29,630 nucleotides of DNA. Origin: Neophaeotheca triangularis (taxonomy: Eukaryota). The position numbers were made by a program, and so were the translations under genes. Positions 4,430-23,562 of this stretch are shown piece after piece. How positions within the stretch are numbered: the stretch's first letter is position 1; every line of letters begins with the position of its first letter. The DNA lies in contig BAAIJX010000057.1 in the NCBI GenBank assembly GCA_054600435.1, forward strand, positions 124,001-153,630, in the 5' to 3' direction. Under the pieces are notes generated by a model that ran no database searches, had not been told where the DNA came from, and saw nothing but the letters and a program-made list of their open reading frames with translations.

Positions 4430-4548
4430 CGCTGCTTATCTAATCAAGTTTGGCGGCGGCTGAAGCAGGGAGACTCTTCCAGTTGCAACAGCCACAACAC
4501 CTCCTGAGCAATGTAATCTCCATCGTCTCGCTCCTTGACTATTGTATC
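4430..4548. promoter_or_regulatory. Very short (119 bp) divergent intergenic region, probable bidirectional promoter for TRS65 and TBCE
   Basis: Head-to-head ATGs at 4429 (-) and 4549 (+). Confidence 0.55.
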
Positions 4549-6300
4549 ATGAGCCACCTGGCCTCGTTCTATGAAGGGCAGAGGCTAAGCCTCAAAAATC
4601 TTACTTGCACTGTCCGCTTCGTTGGATCGGTAGCAGGCAAAGCAGGGGAATGGCTGGGGGTTGAGTGGGACGATACGAGCCGTGGCAAGAATAATGGCAC
4701 ATTCGACGGTGTCAGGTACTTCAGCTGTAGGACCCACTTTTGCAGTTCCTCCTTAGCGGCCTTTACATCTCATACTTACAATGCAGGCAGGAGCTCTTCC
4801 GCGACAGCGGCATCATTCTTGAGGCCATCCCAGCCATGGGACGAGCCAAGAACATTTTTCCAGGCTGTCCGTGATAAGTACGTCGCCAACGAAGGTGCCA
4901 GTAGAGCGGAGGTCGTCTACTTGTCTGGCAAACAGGCAGAAGAGGTTGGCTTTGGGAAGTTTGCCAAGCGACAGGCTAAGCTCAAGGGGATCCATGTCCT
5001 GGTGCTCGACCGCATGCAAGTTCATGGCAGGCAGCGGCCTGAGAATGAACTTGACGTGGAGACTGCCCATATGTGTGCCAAGGTCACAGATCTCGACCTT
5101 AGTAGCAACCTCCTCGAGTCAGTGGAGGAGATCCAGAACATATGTTCGAAACTGCCCGAGCTGCAGCGCTTGACCCTCGATGGAGATCGCATCCTTCACG
5201 CAGTACCATTACGTCTGAGCCGGCTCAAAAGTCTCAGCATCTCGAATCTTTTCTCCCAGTGGCACGAATGCTCTCGCTTATTAGAAGGGTGCGATTCCCT
5301 AAAGATTCTCACAGCCGCGGAGAGTGGATTCACCAAAGTAGAGGATGAGCTTCCGCCTCTAGTCAGCGAACTTGATCTCGCTGGCAATCAAATGATCTCG
5401 CTCTCGCAGCTTATCGGTCCTGCCAAGAGTCAAACACTTACCAAGCTTGTTCTGAAACACAACAAGATCAGTGACACTGGCGCTAATCAGCAGCCCTTTC
5501 ACTCCGAACTTGCAGACTTGGACCTCAGCTACAACCAAATCAATACATGGTCCTTCTTCGACCAGCTTCCTCTTATTCTGCCTAGCGTCAGACATCTCCG
5601 AGTAACTGGGAACCCGCTGTATTTGAATTTGAGGTCCGCGGAGGGCAAACCACTGTCGACAGAAGACGGATACATGCTCACGATTGCTCGTCTGCCTCAA
5701 TTGCAGTCCCTGAACTACAGCAAAATCACAGACAAGGAGCGACTGAACGCCGATACGTATTATCTAAGCCAGATAGCGACCGAGATGTCTCTCACACCGC
5801 CGGAGAATGAAGCAGAGATAGCGAGTAGACATCCTAGGTGGCAAGCGTTAGTCAAGGAGTACGGCGAACCGGTGGTGGTACGGAAGCTTGGTGCCGACGA
5901 GATTGATCCAAACTCATTAGCTGCTCGACTAGTCCGCTGCAAGTTCAGCTTGGTGGATGAGGCGCAATCGATTCCGCATGCAGATTATTGGGAAGAGGAA
6001 ATCCCGAAGTCGTTCGATGTCTACAAGTTACTCGGATTGGTTGGTAAACGACTGGACCTCTCGCCGCGTTGTCTACGCTTGACTTGGGTGACGGGCGAGA
6101 AGGACCCTCTGGCGCAGAAAGACGACCTGCAGGGACCCGAATGGTGGGATAGCGATGACGAAAATGAGGCAATCCCAGAGGAAGATGAGCTCGTCTCTCG
6201 GGAGGTGGAAATCGTTCCCGGGACGAGAGCTATTGGCACGTATTTTGAAGCTGGCGAGGTTGCGATCAGGGTTTCTCTGAAGGAGCGCTCCTGTCCTTGA
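4549..6300 (+). CDS. PAC2: Tubulin-specific chaperone E (TBCE/Pac2/Alp21), about 563 aa; exons 4549-4726 and 4787-6300
   Basis: N-terminal CAP-Gly domain (TVRFVG...WLGVEWDD..RGKNNGTFDGVRYF), leucine-rich repeats (LDLSSNLL, LDLAGNQM, LDLSYNQI) and a C-terminal ubiquitin-like region. A 60-nt in-frame intron lies at 4727-4786 (GTAGGA...CAG). Confidence 0.92.
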   Translation: MSHLASFYEGQRLSLKNLTCTVRFVGSVAGKAGEWLGVEWDDTSRGKNNGTFDGVRYFSCRTHFCSSSLAAFTSHTYNAGRSSSATAASFLRPSQPWDEPRTFFQAVRDKYVANEGASRAEVVYLSGKQAEEVGFGKFAKRQAKLKGIHVLVLDRMQVHGRQRPENELDVETAHMCAKVTDLDLSSNLLESVEEIQNICSKLPELQRLTLDGDRILHAVPLRLSRLKSLSISNLFSQWHECSRLLEGCDSLKILTAAESGFTKVEDELPPLVSELDLAGNQMISLSQLIGPAKSQTLTKLVLKHNKISDTGANQQPFHSELADLDLSYNQINTWSFFDQLPLILPSVRHLRVTGNPLYLNLRSAEGKPLSTEDGYMLTIARLPQLQSLNYSKITDKERLNADTYYLSQIATEMSLTPPENEAEIASRHPRWQALVKEYGEPVVVRKLGADEIDPNSLAARLVRCKFSLVDEAQSIPHADYWEEEIPKSFDVYKLLGLVGKRLDLSPRCLRLTWVTGEKDPLAQKDDLQGPEWWDSDDENEAIPEEDELVSREVEIVPGTRAIGTYFEAGEVAIRVSLKERSCP

Positions 6301-7209
6301 TGGAGAGCGGATACAATCAAACTGAAGATGTACGTGGAAGTACTAGTAGGCAAGAGTTGACGGATCTGCAACGGTACAAATGCTGTCGGAGATCACCGAC
6401 TGCTAGCTGAGCACTGGCTGTCTGTGGTGCTAGCCGTCAAGCAACTTTGAGACCTTGTCAGTACTTGCGTCTCGCTTCCACCAGACTATTGCAACAGCTT
6501 TTGTCAAACACGACCCTGTGCTTTCCAAATGGTAATTAAGCGCCTCGAGTGGACGACGCAACGTTCAGTCGTGATCATCCTCTCGTTCTAGTTTGCACCT
6601 GTTCGCAATGCCATCGCCTCGTTGAAAGCGTTCTAGAAGCCGTTGAGACCGAGCATCGTCGGCGCTTAATGGTCCGAGGCTGGCTTGCTCCTACCATCAA
6701 CCTGGCGTACGAACACGTAGATGCATACACGTGCATACATGTTTGACTACAGTACTTTCTCAACGTTCATCGACGTCGAACATCTATCTTAATTACTTGC
6801 CTACAAATTTCCAGCAACCTTTCTCAATTTGACGTTGTCGATCAAGTTTCGACCTGTACCCTCGGAGGACTCGGTATGCGAGGCTGCTCGACTCCCGGTA
6901 CCTTCGATCGGTGCAACCTCTAGCTGAGTAGGAACTCTTAAGCTTCGACACGGCAGTCTCCTGGGCATCTTCGGACGAGCTTCTTGGACCGGCACAAGTG
7001 CCCAATTCATTGATAAAAGGGTTTTGTTATCGCAGTCGTCTTATCGCCAGGAAGAATGAAACACCGGCACCAGCTCGAGGGACCCTTGATCAAGCAAGTT
7101 GTCTCTAGCAAGCCTGGCGTCTAGGCCGGAGCCAACAGACCCCACCTGAGTAAACTTTGTAAGTTTTATATATCTCTGACCTTGCCAAACGCCAACAATC
7201 ACCCGATCA

Positions 7210-7305
7210 GCCGGGGTAGCTCAATCGGTAGAGCGTGTGGCTCTTAATGGATCATCAGATCCAGAGATCACCTCAAGGTCGTGGGTTCGAGCCCCACCTT
7301 CGGCT
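7210..7305 (+). tRNA. tRNA-Lys: tRNA-Lys(CTT), copy 1, with a 23-nt canonical intron at 7247-7269
   Basis: Cloverleaf: acceptor GCCGGGG/CTTCGGC, D stem GCTC/GAGC, anticodon CTT at 7243-7245, T arm GTGGG-TTCGAGC-CCCAC. Intron follows A37. Upstream TATA-like TTATATAT and a downstream T-run. Confidence 0.95.
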
Positions 7306-7309
7306 TTCC

Positions 7310-7332
7310 TTTTTGCTCTTCTCACCTTTTTT
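7310..7332 (+). terminator. Pol III terminator T-runs of tRNA-Lys copy 1
   Basis: T5 at 7310-7314 and T6 at 7327-7332, immediately 3' of the tRNA. Confidence 0.75.
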
Positions 7333-7422
7333 GCTTCGCACTCATTTCTGCATTACTTAGACTGATTTTCCAACGACGAGCGAAACAATGCGCGGTCTTC
7401 GCGGTCGGCAATTATCCGATAC

Positions 7423-7583
7423 GCCGGGGTAGCTCAATCGGTAGAGCGTGGTACGTTCCAACACACGCTCGAAATTACCTCATCAGTGCATCTTCTAACA
7501 CCCAACAACAGTGGCTCTTAATTGAACACTACCAGTTCAAACAGATCACCTCAAGGTCGTGGGTTCGAGCCCCATCTTCGGCT
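7423..7583 (+). tRNA. tRNA-Lys: tRNA-Lys(CTT), copy 2, with two introns: spliceosomal-type 7451-7511 (between positions 28/29) and canonical tRNA intron 7521-7547
   Basis: Exons 7423-7450, 7512-7520 and 7548-7583 join to a mature sequence identical to copy 1 except C65>T, which gives a G-U pair in the T stem. A and B boxes are intact. T5 terminator at 7588-7592. Confidence 0.85.
7451..7511 (+). other. 61-nt spliceosomal-type (GT-AG) intron inside the tRNA gene
   Basis: Donor GTACGT (7451-7456), branch site TTCTAAC (7493-7499), acceptor CAG (7509-7511). Length matches the mRNA introns in this window. Absent from paralogous copy 1. Confidence 0.85.
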
Positions 7584-8315
7584 TCTCTTTTTGCTCCTCT
7601 CACCCTTTTGCTGTGTCCTTTTGCTTCTCTAGTCTTGAAACACTTTGAGCCATCTGCTTCACGCGAGTGCATGCAGTGCTTGGGCAGAGTACGGGCGGAG
7701 TTGGGAATTTTTTCTTCTTCTCCCAGCCCCTGTTGACTTGACTGCTAGGCGAGAACAATAATGTCCACAAAGAGGTAGCGTAGCGTTCAGTCCTCAGCTC
7801 CTCGAAGCCCGGGTTGCCTCGAGCTAACGGCACATGTGGTTTTAAAAGCCCAGGAGCAAGCAAGCGGTATCCGTACGTACGTAGGTAGGTAGATACGTAC
7901 GCCACCTCGCCCCGTCTGTCTTGGAGACGCGGCTGTTTTCAAAATCGGCCCCGTCGTGGCTAGTTATACCTGGGACGTTGGTAAAGCAGGCAAGGAAGCA
8001 GCATTAACGCCAGCCAGCCCCTGGGTAGGCATACGGCTGCGCTAAGCAACGGCAACGGCGAGACCCATGTCTTCAAACTCCCCTGATAAGCGAGGCGAAC
8101 AAACTGCATGTAGCCAACGATACGTGACGAACAAGCGAGGTTGGATAGATGGCATTCAACAGGATATGTCCAGACAGATGAAATAAGCCTCTAGATACGA
8201 GAAAGAAGATGGATGAAAGGAAAGAAGAATATCAAGTAATACCACCCAGTTCAGCCAGCCAACCCAAAGAGTAGGTCTCGCGACCCTGAATGTTTTCCTC
8301 CCTTAGATACCCGGT

Positions 8316-8756: not shown

Positions 8757-9575
8757 CTAGATCCAGCCGGCAGTGTCGTTGTCTTCTGCGAACAAGTAGT
8801 CCATGACGCTGGAGATCTCTGCCATGTAGTCGCTGGCGCCGAAGTGCGCAAGACCGAGCGATTGCATGTAGACGGTGTCTTCGTCGTTGCTGTGGTTCGA
8901 GATTACTTGTCCGTACTCTTCTGCGACCTCGTCGAGCTGGGCGAGCTCGTTGTCAAAGGGGCTTTCCCTGGGCGCTTCAACAAAGCCTGAACGCGTAGGG
9001 CTGAAAGCCTCAATCGATGTGCGTCCCCTGGAGCCTGGCGGTGACTGCATGCGGCTAATGGAACGCTGTCGGCTGACCATTTCGTGAGCCTTCTTGGAGT
9101 GCGAGGGAGCGCGTTGTGGCAGGTTTGGCCTGCTTGAGTCGAAAGAAGGACGGGCAGAGGCAGTGGGAGAGTGGCTTGACGTGGGCCTGTTGGTCTCGAC
9201 GGCGGGCTTGAAGTAGCAGCTCAAATGGTTTGGCTCGCATGGCGACTCGTCAACGGAAGAAGCGTCGGTGATGGTATCGTTCGAGTGCACGCTACCACTG
9301 CTGGCGTCGCTGTCTTCACCCGAGCTGTGGCTTGAAGCGGCAGACGATGGGTACGAGGGCTGGTTGCAGTACTCGATGGGCGAGGTGCCGGGGATATCAG
9401 CGTGGTTGTGCGCCGTGGCATTCGTCGTCGACAAAAGTGCTACGGGGGACGAGATCTCATGGCGGAATACCGGCTTACCACCACGTTGGGTAGCAGCTCT
9501 GCCTATACGCATGGGGTTGCTGATTTCGGGCTCGGGCTTCTTGCCGCGAGTGCTGAATGCGCGAGCGAAGGCCAT
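8757..9575 (-). CDS. Ser/Pro-rich hypothetical protein of filamentous ascomycetes, 272 aa, single exon
   Basis: Long ORF with coding-like codon usage. Motifs RHEISSPVALLSTTN, PNLPQRAPSHSKKAH and ELAQLDEVAEE resemble a conserved Pezizomycotina protein of unknown function (from recall, not searched). Confidence 0.8.
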   Translation of the reverse strand: MAFARAFSTRGKKPEPEISNPMRIGRAATQRGGKPVFRHEISSPVALLSTTNATAHNHADIPGTSPIEYCNQPSYPSSAASSHSSGEDSDASSGSVHSNDTITDASSVDESPCEPNHLSCYFKPAVETNRPTSSHSPTASARPSFDSSRPNLPQRAPSHSKKAHEMVSRQRSISRMQSPPGSRGRTSIEAFSPTRSGFVEAPRESPFDNELAQLDEVAEEYGQVISNHSNDEDTVYMQSLGLAHFGASDYMAEISSVMDYLFAEDNDTAGWI

Positions 9576-10983
9576 GTCGTTGTATGGTCTGGTCTGGGTT
9601 GGCGAAGATGGTGAAGATGAGTCGACTCGGTGTGGTTGTTGACGATGGGACTGAGGTGCACGCGACTGTCTCGGGCGTCTGTCTGCTGACTGGCAGCAAG
9701 TGTGGTGACGGATTTGAAATGGGACCTGGCTCTCGAATTGTCACGAAAGGATGAGGTTAGGTTCCGGACCGGTCTCTACGGGTCGAAGTGGGCAAGGAAT
9801 GGAATGTGGTGGGTTTGGCTGAGCTGCTGCACTTGGCGCAGGGAAGTAAATGATAGTGGTAAAGTAGGACGATGACGATGCTGGTGGTGTTGTTAGTGAG
9901 CGTGTAATAACGAGTGGACAAGTGCGCAAGGCTCGGGCGCGTGGTGGTGGTGGAAAAGAGTGACTAGGAGGGGCGTGATGCGTGCGAGAGAGCGCGTGGT
10001 CGTGGAGCGAAGGAGAGTAGATGGTTAGTTTAGTGTGCAGAAGCGCCGTCGCAGAGAAAGACGGAGGAGATTGATTGAAATCTTGCCTAAGCAGGCGCAC
10101 GGACGGGACGGGATACGCCTGCCTGTGCCTGCCTGTGCCTCTACTGTGGGTACATAGCCGTGCCTGCCTCGTTGGGTTCAGTCTGGGGTCGGGCGAGCTG
10201 GATGCCGTCTAGCGTTGCCCTGGGCCCACACTCCCATCCAATCAATCACTGCCTGGCCGCCTTGTTCACCCGACCATGTCACGGTCCGGCGCGTGTGTTG
10301 AGCAGGGGCCGGCCAATCACTCTCCTCCCTACGTCTTCCGTCTCGAACAAATTCGTCGGGAGGCTCGCCGAGGCGTTTCACCCGCAGCCAATTTGCATTC
10401 AAATCTTCTGTACGCGAGGCGGTTTTGTTCGGTGACCACACTACCTTAGTACTACTACTAGGAAGTACGTACGGTACTGACCACGTCTCATCGTTCATGT
10501 CCATCCATCGGGTGGATATCATCACAGCGCATGACGATTGACGTGCAGCCCAAACAAGACCGATCGAGGTTCGCAGATGTCGCGATTCATCGTTCCTTTC
10601 GCTATTCTCTAAGCAATCCATCATGTGTAGAAGCGTGACCATATCATGCAAAGCGAGACGCGTGCAAGAGGAGCAAATAGGTTGTCTAGAACAAACCCTA
10701 CTGCAGACTTTTAGACTTGCGCACGCTTGGGGTACTGTAGGTACTGTAGAAGCGGGCGGCTACCAGAGGTATGCTATCAACTCTGGACAAAAGCCACAAT
10801 CTCATCAATGTAACAAATACAACACCATCAGTCTTTGCTTTTCTAGACGGCAATAATCTGTCAGCACACTTCAACGATGAATCAGTAAATGTAGCAAAGC
10901 CAACTCCTCGCTAAATCGGCAATGAATTAAGCAAAGACGGCACCCATGTCACCAAATCCACCCGACAGCTCTCAACCACATCT

Positions 10984-19200: not shown

Positions 19201-20345
19201 TCGTCGCATTTGATGCTGAAGGACTCAACGAGCACACCGTCGCAAGACAGCATGTCACCAGTCTCGAGCAGTAGTATGTCGCCTACCAGGATATCGTGGA
19301 CACTGATCTCGCGGGTTTGTCCCGAGCGGCACACCTTGACATTGCGGTTATCCTTTTTCTTGTTGAGCTTGACAAATTGTCGTTCTTTTTGCCAGTCATT
19401 GAGTGCGCCCACACCGACCACGACGATGATTGCGACGATGATTGCTACTCCTTCGACCCATTCAACATTAGGTTCACCTGCTTCATGTTCCTGACCGAAG
19501 GTCGAGTAGAGGCCAAGTGCCAAAGCAATGGCGGCGGCGGCTGTAAGCAGAATGAGGATTTTGTCGTTGTAGGCCATCCATGCCAACTGCAGGATGTTCT
19601 TCGCTTTACGTTCGGGTAGCTTATTCGTTAGGAAGATTCGTCTCCGGTCGCCGAATTGATCACTAGGGTTCGCGGGTGGGCCAGCATCAGCCTTTCCTAC
19701 TTGGGTGGTGTCTGACGATGGACTGTCTGTCGCTGTGACGTCCTCAAACGTGACACGACCAGGCAGATGGGCTTCCTCGAGACTCAACCCGGCGGCCAAA
19801 TTTGTCCTCAGTCCCTTCTCCAACCCAGGCAGTCCACCAACGGCATGAAAGGCCCCTAAACTCTTGGGATTCACCAGCTTGGTCATATGCCCAGGCGCAA
19901 AGGCAAAAGGGTTCTCGTCCCGCTGGAAGTCGGCTTCAGTGCCGGGATCGGGCTTGAGGGCAGCATCGTCGGGCAAAACTGGATGACCGCCAGCGCCGGT
20001 GGGAAGAGAATCGGATAGGAAGGCCTTGTTCGACCTGTCGGTAGGTGAATTGACGTAGGTGACATCAGAAGTCGTGGTCGAGTAGGAATTGTTGGTGTCG
20101 ACGCTGCCTCCACGATTCCGTGTGGGTACAGACAGGTGACTTGATGCCGGTGGTTGTGGGGATATCGGGGGGGCTTGATTGTCGCTCATATCATCTCGAC
20201 TTTGTGGAGGCTGACCGACAGCCGATGTATCGATAGTAATGGTTGGTGCCCGAGGGCGACCCTGTTGGGCGTCAGCGAGCAGCCCATGCCAGACACGATC
20301 ATGTCTTGGCGTTGATGGGGATGGACATGGACATACGGAAGCCAT
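16275..20345 (-). CDS. PMC1: P-type IIB (PMCA-type) Ca2+-transporting ATPase, about 1331 aa; coding exons 20345-20337 and 20261-16275
   Basis: Motifs TGES, VVAVPEGLPLAVT, DKTGTLT phosphorylation site, KGASE, TGDGTNDAPALK and QLLWINLIMD. A 75-nt in-frame intron at 20336-20262 (GTATGT...GCTGAC...CAG) follows MAS. Confidence 0.95.
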   Translation of the reverse strand: MASVCPCPSPSTPRHDRVWHGLLADAQQGRPRAPTITIDTSAVGQPPQSRDDMSDNQAPPISPQPPASSHLSVPTRNRGGSVDTNNSYSTTTSDVTYVNSPTDRSNKAFLSDSLPTGAGGHPVLPDDAALKPDPGTEADFQRDENPFAFAPGHMTKLVNPKSLGAFHAVGGLPGLEKGLRTNLAAGLSLEEAHLPGRVTFEDVTATDSPSSDTTQVGKADAGPPANPSDQFGDRRRIFLTNKLPERKAKNILQLAWMAYNDKILILLTAAAAIALALGLYSTFGQEHEAGEPNVEWVEGVAIIVAIIVVVGVGALNDWQKERQFVKLNKKKDNRNVKVCRSGQTREISVHDILVGDILLLETGDMLSCDGVLVESFSIKCDESSATGESDLVRKSNGYEVYRAMEANENLRKLDPFIISGAKVTEGVGRMLVTGTGVNSLYGKTMMALREENDPTPLQKKLNKLADQIAKLGSSAALLLFVVLLIKFLADLPNNDEPPAQKGRRFMDILIVAVTIVVVAVPEGLPLAVTLALAFATRRMLKEGNLVRVLRSCETMGNATNVCTDKTGTLTQNVMTVVTGSLGVSNKFNNRTKLDTEGAETNTTKPGHLGTTTAQKFVQQLHERVSNIWRESIVINSTAFENDEGQYVGSKTETALLDFARTYLGMESVQIERSNASIVQIVPFDSSRKCMAMVVKLKDGSGYRLMVKGASEIMLGHCSNIIQDPTAGIGTMAMTSQTREVIESTIESYATDSLRTIGFVYRDFASWPPKDVRRQEDDPTMAVFGDVLKEMTWLGLVGIQDPLREGVIEAVEDAKMAGIFVRMVTGDNIMTAKAIARECGILHGDGIAMEGPLFRTLSEQQQRELLPTLQVLSRSSPEDKRILVKLLKDMGETVAVTGDGTNDAPALKTADVGFAMNIAGTEVAKEASDIVLMNDNFAAIIDATKWGRSTNDAVRKFLQFQLTVNITAVLLAFVSAVSSAEEESVLTAVQLLWINLIMDTMAALALATDPPTRKILNRKPDPKSAPLISLRMWKMIIGQAIYQLIITFILYYAGTTMFHFDEEHIQTLVFNTFTWMQIFNAFNNRRLDNNFNIFEGIHRNLFFVGILCVMIGGQVLIIFVGGAAFRITHQNKDQWAIAIVCGAVSLLVGVVVRLVPDEIVRRFWAFLCSLVPSPVKRFFARFTRKKNADEENSFAFQEEGLYEIKRELAFIKKYKGGRLNNLKFTLQHPRQALIYSRSPSRSRLSQSTPPKTPDQEHAEHLSAPPTPSSKHRSRSRSNSALAGIAMAGVVAGSVAGWSPIDRRDGDGESLRPPSMDRSVSSLSSEPARARTPPAPSSTSGGGLAPDVQRSAHNRTMP

Positions 20346-20610
20346 GGTGGAAAAGGAGACTGCAAGCTGTGTCTGCCTGCTTGGTAGATTGTGATGCGGA
20401 ATAGCGGTTGTGATGAGGTTGTGGGCGGGTCTTGGTAGGTAGGCTTGAATCAATTGCGACCAGGATTGGGGTTGTGGCAGGAGCCGCGGGAGATGTGCGA
20501 AGGATTCTTCATGCCAAACAAGCACTGAGTGCAGGTACTGTGTAGTGTCGAAAGCAGTAACGACTTCCAATTCCCTTTTGTTGTTTGTTCGCTGTGAGCG
20601 CTGACGTGCG

Positions 20611-20634
20611 TGGTGGTGGTGGTGGTGGTGGTGG
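20611..20634. repeat. (TGG)8 microsatellite in the PMC1 5' region
   Basis: Directly visible. Confidence 0.9.
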
Positions 20635-21207
20635 CAACAGATGTAGAAGTTGAACAGCAAGCTTAGCGGGAGAGGACGACGAACGATGGGGGCTGACGGG
20701 CGGCGATGAGCATCTGATGATGGCGGGCAGTGCAACAAGAATACCTAAGGTACCTTATTGATGGATGTTTAACTTACACAGCCCCAAAAGGTACCTAACA
20801 AGGTAGAAATGGACTGTATTCCTCGTCAAGTACACCTCAGGTACGAATGCTTGGCGTGAAGGAGGCGCAGCAACTACACCACGACCCGCTAGTTATGCAC
20901 CCCACACCGCTAAAGGGTATGCCCAGGCGTATTGTCGATAATAATAATGGAGAGAGAAGAGACAAAGGTAAAGCGACCGGTCCCGCGAACCATGTCCGAC
21001 TGTAACAATTATACCTTAGTCCTTATAACCCTCACAGTCAAAACATAATAATACTACTGAAGATTGTTCATCTTCGAGGACAGGTCTTAGCAAGCAAGTA
21101 TGGCTGTATAGCGATTATTGGAAGTACTACTAGTATGCACCTCAGTAGTGACTACTGACAGCAATTGCAGCTGCCTCTTCCCGTCGCCACCCCATGAGGT
21201 CCGGGTG

Positions 21208-23105: not shown

Positions 23106-23562
23106 GTTGAGTGGGAGGTGGCTTTTGGGGGAAGGGGGTTAGTGGAGGCTGTTGCTTGAGGGGGTGTCCGTTGTTGTTGATGGTACCTTGGGGTTGTAGC
23201 AGGCTGGCCTGACGAATTATCGGCTTCTGCTGAGCGTTTTGAATATGACCCGAGTCCGCTCGAGAATGTGCGCCTTTCGCTGCTTGGTAATTCTCGACAC
23301 CGGTGAGTTCCTGGAGACATCACAACCAAGGAAGCGTCTTCTTCGACCCTTTATCCGAAGTCCTCGATACAGGGACAAACATCGCTACCTCAACTGCAGC
23401 CTGAGTAACCATTCACCTCTAACCTCCTAGCCTCGAGACAATTACAAACATTACTATGTCGACCACAGCCTGAGCGACTAGGCCTGTGCTCACTCATCCT
23501 ACCCTTGTAGCGAGTTGTACGACGACAAACTGCCGACTGACAGCGGCATTCGAACAAGCGCT

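Follow-up and report, generated by a model that had tools for sequence, protein, structure and literature searches.

The 29.6-kb window analysed here (the whole stretch of DNA, 29,630 nt of contig BAAIJX010000057.1 of Neophaeotheca triangularis) holds two nuclear tRNA-Lys(CUU) genes arranged head to tail, hereafter copy 1 and copy 2. Copy 2 is interrupted twice: by a canonical tRNA intron at site 37/38 and, in the anticodon stem, by a 61-nt insert (7451..7511, + strand) that is by its sequence an ordinary fungal spliceosomal-type intron and very probably a spliceosomal intron by origin. The best explanation overall, to which we give a probability of about one half, is that a spliceosomal intron transposed into a redundant tRNA-Lys copy, which may now be weakly productive or non-productive. 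A tRNA gene is apparently a new host class for a known phenomenon, the presence of spliceosomal introns in non-coding RNA genes.

A tRNA-Lys gene with two interruptions

Copy 1 (7210..7305, + strand; Rfam RF00005, 51.9 bits) provides the reference: its exons (7210-7246 and 7270-7305) enclose a canonical 23-nt intron at site 37/38 (7247-7269), ARAGORN in intron mode (-i) calls it tRNA-Lys(ctt) with a 23-nt intron, and a T5 terminator follows at 7310-7314. Copy 2 (7423..7583, + strand) matches the same Rfam model at 37.3 bits, with 101 nt taken as insertion. In the pairwise alignment, copy 2 is set apart from copy 1 by one clean gap of 61 columns between tRNA positions 28 and 29, with identical exon letters on either side; the boundary can slide by a single G, and the register that begins with GT and ends with AG is 7451-7511. 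A preliminary description of this DNA had proposed just such a clean insertion in copy 2, and the alignment confirms it, every coordinate that was checked being correct.

The remaining parts of copy 2 are those of an ordinary tRNA gene. Exon part 1 (7423..7450, tRNA positions 1-28) is identical to copy 1 and contains the A box (~7430-7441); the insert is followed by a middle exon of 9 nt, TGGCTCTTA (7512..7520, positions 29-37), which carries the anticodon CTT, then by the canonical 27-nt tRNA intron at 37/38 (7521..7547), called by ARAGORN after removal of the insert, and by the 3' exon (7548..7583, positions 38-73) with the B box GGTTCGAGCCC (7562-7572). The sole exon difference from copy 1 is C65T at 7575, by which the pair G49-C65 becomes G49-U65. 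A T5 run (7588..7592), the longest T run in the trailer, is the likely terminator for RNA polymerase III (Pol III); inside the gene no T run is longer than 2, so that the A box, the B box and the oligo-T terminator are present without an internal terminator. These points agree with what had been claimed before: excision restores the copy-1 sequence exactly, the insert has no run of four T, the promoter boxes, anticodon and terminator are intact, and the one exon difference still pairs (G-U). When 7451-7511 is excised in silico, a step that had also been proposed, ARAGORN returns a tRNA-Lys(ctt) of normal form, 73 nt long and with its 27-nt intron at 37/38; judged by its sequence, copy 2 would be a normal intron-containing pre-tRNA-Lys once the insert is removed. 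The intervening sequence of copy 2 totals 88 nt.

The canonical intron of copy 2 has diverged in sequence from that of copy 1 at the same 37/38 site. Both canonical introns (7247-7269 and 7521-7547) have A as first base, a hairpin from the second base and AGATC at the end.

Splice signals of the insert

The insert opens, at its first base, with the 5' splice site GTACGT (7451-7456), which conforms to GTRNGY, and has a branch signal TTCTAAC (7493-7499, branch A at 7498) and an acceptor CAG (7509-7511) conforming to CTRAY and YAG, the acceptor G lying 13 nt past the branch A. Short introns with GTRNGY...CTRAY...YAG signals occur in the window, and three of them, found by a strict intron heuristic plus Pfam profile continuity for the MFS gene, serve for comparison: introns of 56 nt at 243-298 (GTAAGC...GCTAAC...CAG) and of 75 nt at 20262-20336 (- strand), both with support from open reading frames (ORFs) or profiles, and one of 50 nt at 1082-1131, where the TRI12 profile passes from one frame to the next. 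Beside these the insert is of typical length (61 nt vs 50, 56 and 75 nt, a small sample), and its distance from branch A to acceptor is 13 nt vs 9-10 nt. The preliminary description had named the same three signals, which are read directly in the sequence and stand beyond chance, and had likened their spacing to that of messenger RNA introns in the window, a likeness borne out in size and branch spacing by the three supported introns.

With the motif anchored (GTRNGT opening the segment, CTRAY lying 6-30 nt from its end and YAG closing it), a single one of the 59,138 61-mers on both strands of the window fits, and it is the insert itself. Among window segments of 45-120 nt, 7 of 4,491,220 fit, a chance of ~1.6e-6 per segment, and none of 2,000,000 shuffles of the insert does; the splice signals are therefore not a product of chance. 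A stricter, unanchored scan for GTRNGT...NCTRAC...YAG returned two segments of the window, one of them the insert. The other (23303-23430, + strand; 128 nt, GTGAGT...TCTAAC...TAG) is probably an intron of some gene.

Folded alone, the insert is unstructured (-1.97 kcal/mol, z 0.19). Alignment at its junctions revealed neither terminal repeats nor a target duplication beyond the 1-nt ambiguity, and a short-word BLAST search found no insert-like stretch elsewhere in the 29.6-kb window. Compared on the direct strand, insert and canonical intron reach a likeness score of 16, beside a shuffle mean of 13.5 that was taken against the reverse-complement target.

The insert in sequencing reads of two samples

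The locus is present in two sequencing runs only, X1 (word share 0.90) and X2 (0.25); the share in six RNA runs is 0.05-0.07. Run X3 reaches only 6980-7258, at depth 2, and is silent on copy 2, and three contigs of RNA run X17 match only within 7210-7286 and then diverge: they belong to other organisms' tRNA-Lys and are uninformative for the locus. X2 comes from another sample than X1 under the same organism label, with ~3-5% differences at non-coding positions.

In X1, the stretch 7279-7572 is spanned without a single difference by one read-assembled contig of 294 nt, whose word depth is 128.8 (123-132 in the flanks); the depth over 7444-7511 is that single contig's 128.8, and X1 yielded no second contig of at least 80% likeness. 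By X1 depth and within the window, the insert is single-copy. X1 is possibly the window's source sample; it therefore excludes an assembler artefact and gives no independent biology. In X2, a contig likewise of 294 nt (7280-7572) retains the insert at a depth of 96.4 vs 108-111 in the flanks. Two doubts that the preliminary description had itself raised, an assembly artefact and decay of the splice signals in related loci, are thus answered by contigs that span the insert in both samples, in X1 at single-copy depth and in X2 with unaltered signals. A contig joining 7450 to 7512 was sought among the read-assembled contigs of all runs examined, and none was found.

The differences between X2 and the window lie outside the exons as far as they are listed. 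The spacer 7306-7422 (117 nt) has 5 substitutions and a 1-nt insertion, the insert (61 nt) has 3 substitutions (7491 T>C, 7503 C>A, 7505 A>G) that leave its splice signals unchanged, and the 27-nt tRNA intron has 1 (7533); the substitution rate between X1 and X2 in the insert resembles that in the spacer. In all, the 205 non-exonic nt of the X2 contig carry 9 substitutions and 1 indel, and the 88 exonic nt covered have 0 listed differences, the contig reporting 10 other letters, one of them unlisted. The changes at 7503 and 7505 create an AAG in X2 at 7 nt past the branch A, too near for use as an acceptor. With the insert in both samples, the insertion would predate the divergence of the two sampled strains.

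The next X2 contig (7564-7842) begins at 7564, and 7555-7593 recurs with one mismatch at other tRNA-Lys loci of X1. Because the contig start at 7564 fits a C at 7575 in X2, U65 may be private to the X1 lineage. At 7060-7214, X2 has two contigs of 155 nt with depths of 52.3 and 62.3 and different substitution sets; X2 is heterozygous, heterokaryotic or mixed there, and 7280-7572 is covered by one contig.

Copy 2 belongs to a larger set of tRNA-Lys genes. At the exon borders the sequence of X1 continues in two different ways upstream and in two downstream, a paralogue with another intron is present as well, and the word depth summed over the shared exons is ~6-8 times the single-copy depth (a rough guide only), which corresponds to roughly 6-8 redundant tRNA-Lys copies. 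Since other tRNA-Lys loci exist, the loss of one copy is tolerable.

Origin of the insert

We infer that a regular spliceosomal intron was transposed precisely from end to end (first G through last G) in sense orientation, and that its landing site was the 5' strand of the anticodon stem (position 28/29) of one of the tandem tRNA-Lys(CUU) genes. The clean GT...AG ends of introns in protein genes say little on mechanism, because only spliceable insertions survive there. Here, an exact sense intron unit stands in a redundant gene where survival needed no spliceability, which argues for an event based on intron RNA; together with the lack of a target duplication, this favours intron gain by such a route over gain by a transposon. 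The route would most likely have been RNA-mediated, and three candidates may be considered: (i), reverse splicing of the excised intron into intron-containing pre-tRNA, followed by reverse transcription and recombination; (ii), reverse splicing at an R-loop of the Pol III gene, into the sense DNA strand that is displaced there; (iii), capture at a break of a cDNA of the excised intron. An RNA target would have been the unspliced precursor, because the canonical tRNA intron 9 nt away is retained.

tRNA genes are hot spots of R-loops, and the insert agrees with a proposed targeting of introns to strongly transcribed genes that are prone to R-loops. Reverse splicing into R-loop DNA has been proposed as a source of new introns, which would be sense-oriented (PMC11146597; this and the other articles given by accession are cited for the part of their text that was available). 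Spliceosomal introns in U6, U2, U5, U1 and ribosomal RNA (rRNA) genes have likewise been ascribed to reverse splicing in a review of U6, the available part of which calls the determinants of insertion into non-coding RNAs unclear and does not include tRNA in its list (PMC5855946).

The insert is unlike a young introner or transposon because it has no stable fold of its own and is single-copy; by X1 depth and in the window, neither the multiple copies of an introner nor its terminal repeats, target duplication or own fold were found. Old introner-like elements soon become indistinguishable from regular introns (PMC4457414), a point to which we return below.

Predicted pairing across the insertion point

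By short BLAST, positions 7462-7470 of the insert (CACACGCTC) match exactly, as reverse complement, the pre-insertion GAGCGTG^TG that spans the insertion point; TACC (7476-7479) pairs with GGTA (7440-7443). The predicted exon-intron hairpin (7440..7479, + strand) has 4+7+2 bp with pair probabilities of 0.8-1.0, GGTAGAGCGTGGT (7440-7452) pairing with AC.CACGCTC.....TACC (7461-7479). This complementarity was noticed post hoc and is borderline: a junction-spanning 9-nt match arises in 112 of 20,000 dinucleotide shuffles and a match of at least 9 nt anywhere in the gene in 238 of 20,000, and when the insert is aligned locally to the reverse complement of the whole pre-insertion gene, 306 of 5,000 shuffles do equally well or better, which is not significant; what is unusual is solely that the match lies over the junction. 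We consider it rather doubtful that 7462-7479, complementary to tRNA positions 18-30, records how the intron chose its target, by pairing with pre-tRNA or with a displaced strand of DNA in a manner comparable to that of group II introns and their exon-binding sites.

The predicted hairpin covers the 5' splice site from -7 to +2 and competes with the D stem. By hiding the 5' splice site it argues against efficient splicing, and hairpins that bury a 5' splice site inhibit splicing in yeast. Predicted folds of the precursor (minimum free energy, centroid and pair probabilities) contain no bulge-helix-bulge (BHB) uniting both junctions, no dedicated motif search having been made: an unbroken helix of 7+2 bp encloses the 5' junction, and the 3' junction is paired with the anticodon stem's 3' strand. 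Because the folds show no BHB, removal of the insert by the tRNA endonuclease is unlikely, and we know of no fungal case of an ectopic tRNA intron of the BHB kind.

Does copy 2 work?

Judged by its sequence, and at odds that we put near even, copy 2 would be a redundant gene that is poorly productive or non-productive, and it may persist because other identical tRNA-Lys copies exist. Were its transcript rescued at all, a product of Pol III would have to be spliced by the spliceosome, as happens with fission-yeast U6. The strongest competing view, which we hold unlikely although it merits weighing, is that copy 2 is alive and served by two machineries: from a Pol III precursor of ~170 nt the spliceosome would remove 7451-7511, a step that would restore the anticodon stem, and the tRNA endonuclease and ligase would then remove 7521-7547, giving a working tRNA-Lys(CUU). 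The intact A box, B box, T5 terminator, cloverleaf and anticodon are consistent with this, as are T runs of at most 2 in the 88 nt of intervening sequence, the perfect consensus of the splice signals, and the retention of the insert in two diverged samples with no listed exon change between them. The 88 nt also agree with the natural tRNA introns of eukaryotes, which range over 6-133 nt (PMC4090602), and the fission-yeast U6 gene with its spliceosomal intron offers a Pol III precedent (PMC5855946).

Two further observations speak against an unproductive copy 2. The first is the 6-bp hairpin of the canonical intron, TTGAAC/GTTCAA in copy 2 vs TGGATC/GATCCA in copy 1, that is, two double compensatory changes: paired changes on both sides of the hairpin suggest selection on intron structure, and because the hairpin was kept in this way, copy 2 would have been a selected pre-tRNA for long after the duplication. 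The second is the sparing of the exons: that all 9 substitutions avoid the 88 exonic nt has p ~0.04 if they fall uniformly (our own arithmetic), which hints at constraint or gene conversion and hence at a living gene, with the caveat that there is one unlisted X2 difference per contig (7280-7572 and 7564-7842), of which one may fall in the 3' exon. Gene conversion among the tRNA-Lys copies could be an alternative cause of the likeness of the exons.

Several points hold us back from the two-machinery view nonetheless. Copy 2 is one of several copies with identical exons, so that selection for its retention would be weak; the predicted hairpin would compete with U1 binding at the 5' splice site as well as with the D stem; C65U weakens the T-stem pair 49-65; the signal of exon conservation is weak, with p ~0.04 at best and unlisted differences; and a scan of metagenome records for the junction (described below) contained no second example (0 matches). 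Moreover, Pol III transcripts have been poor splicing substrates in animal-cell tests. If copy 2 were alive, it would be the first tRNA known to depend on the spliceosome, joining two pathways thought to be separate, and tRNA finders would undercount such genes.

The other explanations fare worse. It is improbable that the insert belongs, as an intron, to a Pol II transcript crossing the tRNA locus, either a non-coding RNA or read-through from the CAP-Gly/LRR gene, an ORF on the + strand (4444-6300, assigned by its Pfam domains) that is directed towards the tRNAs. A stop-free frame (7248-7736) does span the locus, but it has no Pfam match and its length is about what chance would produce once per window (our own arithmetic), the CAP-Gly/LRR ORF ends ~900 nt upstream of copy 1, the locus is covered by no RNA contig, and such a transcript leaves both the exact tRNA context and the insertion itself unexplained. 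An insert of chance or unrelated DNA (filler, a transposon fragment or a degenerate introner-like element) or an artefact of assembly is slightly more improbable still: an old introner-like element would indeed look like a regular intron (PMC4457414), but the counts of the anchored motif (7 of 4.49 million segments, 0 of 2,000,000 shuffles), the lack of terminal repeats and target duplication, the single-copy state and the absence of structure stand against unrelated DNA, the read-assembled contigs of two samples that span the insert stand against an artefact, and the chance and artefact readings are largely refuted. Finally, a non-canonical BHB intron cut by the tRNA splicing endonuclease, as in Cyanidioschyzon or nucleomorphs, is very improbable, since it would account for position 28/29 in the anticodon stem, a site of ectopic BHB introns in archaea and some algae (PMC4090602), but the predicted folds lack a BHB joining the junctions (by fold prediction, not a motif search) and it gives no reason for the signal set GTACGT...CTAAC...CAG.

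Comparison with known systems

It is rare for a non-coding RNA gene to hold a spliceosomal intron, and such introns are the chief evidence from nature that the spliceosome can return introns to nucleic acids. The known cases are mostly in spliceosomal small nuclear RNAs and explicable by closeness to the active site, a closeness that a tRNA gene lacks. Bhattacharya et al. are said to have described spliceosomal introns in ascomycete rDNA in 2000; like the insert these are of spliceosomal type in ascomycete genes outside Pol II, but they occur in Pol I genes at many sites and in many taxa, whereas the insert occupies a single Pol III tRNA locus. Group II introns interrupt plastid tRNA genes such as trnK(UUU), so that there too, as in copy 2, a tRNA-Lys gene holds an intron of a lariat-forming type; unlike the insert, the plastid intron is organellar, self-splicing or maturase-dependent, kilobase-sized and situated in the anticodon loop.

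Among the closest known cases are the introns in U6 of Schizosaccharomyces pombe and other fungi and in U1, U2 and U5 of Rhodotorula hasegawae, which like the insert bring GT-AG ends and a branch signal into the gene of a small structured RNA; the U6-type cases and copy 2 have in common an internal Pol III promoter, an arrival thought to be by reverse splicing and a lineage-specific insertion (PMC5855946). There are differences: U6 lies within the spliceosomal active site, which explains its targeting, while tRNA does not; splicing of U6 has been demonstrated in S. pombe, while copy 2 is known here from sequence alone; and copy 2 has, unlike U6, a further intron of another type at a distance of 9 nt. 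Ectopic BHB introns of Cyanidioschyzon merolae and of nucleomorphs likewise make for two interruptions, one of them in the anticodon stem, but they are short, defined by structure and cut by the endonuclease, whereas the insert is defined by spliceosomal signals and its predicted folds contain no BHB (PMC4090602). The introner-like elements of Dothideomycetes and the introners of algae resemble the insert as recent short introns possibly transposed by the spliceosome; they form multi-copy families in protein genes, whereas the insert is single-copy, without a stable fold and in a tRNA gene (PMC4457414, PMC11146597).

Annotation and searches for further cases

The preliminary description expected tRNA finders to overlook genes of this kind, which is true in part: ARAGORN misses or misnames copy 2, but the Rfam tRNA model finds it. 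By default, ARAGORN named copy 1 (7209-7306) tRNA-Leu(taa) and missed copy 2; in intron mode it took copy 2 for a tRNA-Ser(tga) whose intron would be 68 nt long. An automated annotation would therefore get the locus wrong. The further suggestion that a whole class of such genes might be hidden gained no support, as the pattern of 5' exon joined to GTANGT had 0 matches in 241 million metagenome records. An orthologous locus was also sought through the neighbouring gene: relatives of the CAP-Gly/LRR protein are encoded at 79 loci of fungal metagenomes (best-segment identity 26-76%, for most of them 30-50%), and neither half of the tRNA-Lys was found in these 79 at up to 4 errors, which leaves X2 as the only orthologous locus found. 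Because none of the 79 holds tRNA-Lys, synteny fails to reach so far. ARAGORN called one distinct tRNA in them, a tRNA-Phe on four near-identical loci. This tRNA-Phe(aaa) (L044, L047, L048 and L049; 6362-6478, minus strand) has a 21-nt intron and lies downstream of a cofactor-E-like gene; its anticodon is odd, and it may be a mis-call.

The statement that no spliceosomal intron had been described in a tRNA gene also holds for our full-text literature searches, whose coverage lies mostly outside subscription journals and which returned no such description. A review of tRNA introns has no word beginning with 'spliceosom', and it reports that when one member of a eukaryotic tRNA gene family has an odd insertion, it is usually regarded as a pseudogene (PMC4090602).

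The tandem pair and its surroundings

The window has a G+C content of ~53%, and its Pfam-supported proteins are a TRI12-type MFS transporter, a CAP-Gly/LRR protein, a MutL-type mismatch repair protein, a P-type ATPase and a Trs65 protein, the two tRNA genes lying in the gap downstream of the CAP-Gly/LRR gene. By the TRI12-type MFS match and the style of its introns, the window is taken for nuclear DNA of a fungus. The unit of duplication takes in the flanks of the tRNA genes: a CAAT.A.CCGAT motif is common to both upstream sides (7190-7209 and 7405-7422), and ~30 nt of the trailers (7306-7335 and 7584-7612) are similar, T-rich and contain GCTC.TCTCACC. The first 10-13 bases of the trailer are common to other tRNA-Lys loci in X1. 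Away from the tRNA genes, GC skew is strongly positive in the 1-kb bins 9001-10000 (0.31) and 20001-21000 (0.26), which lie in or beside minus-strand ORFs.

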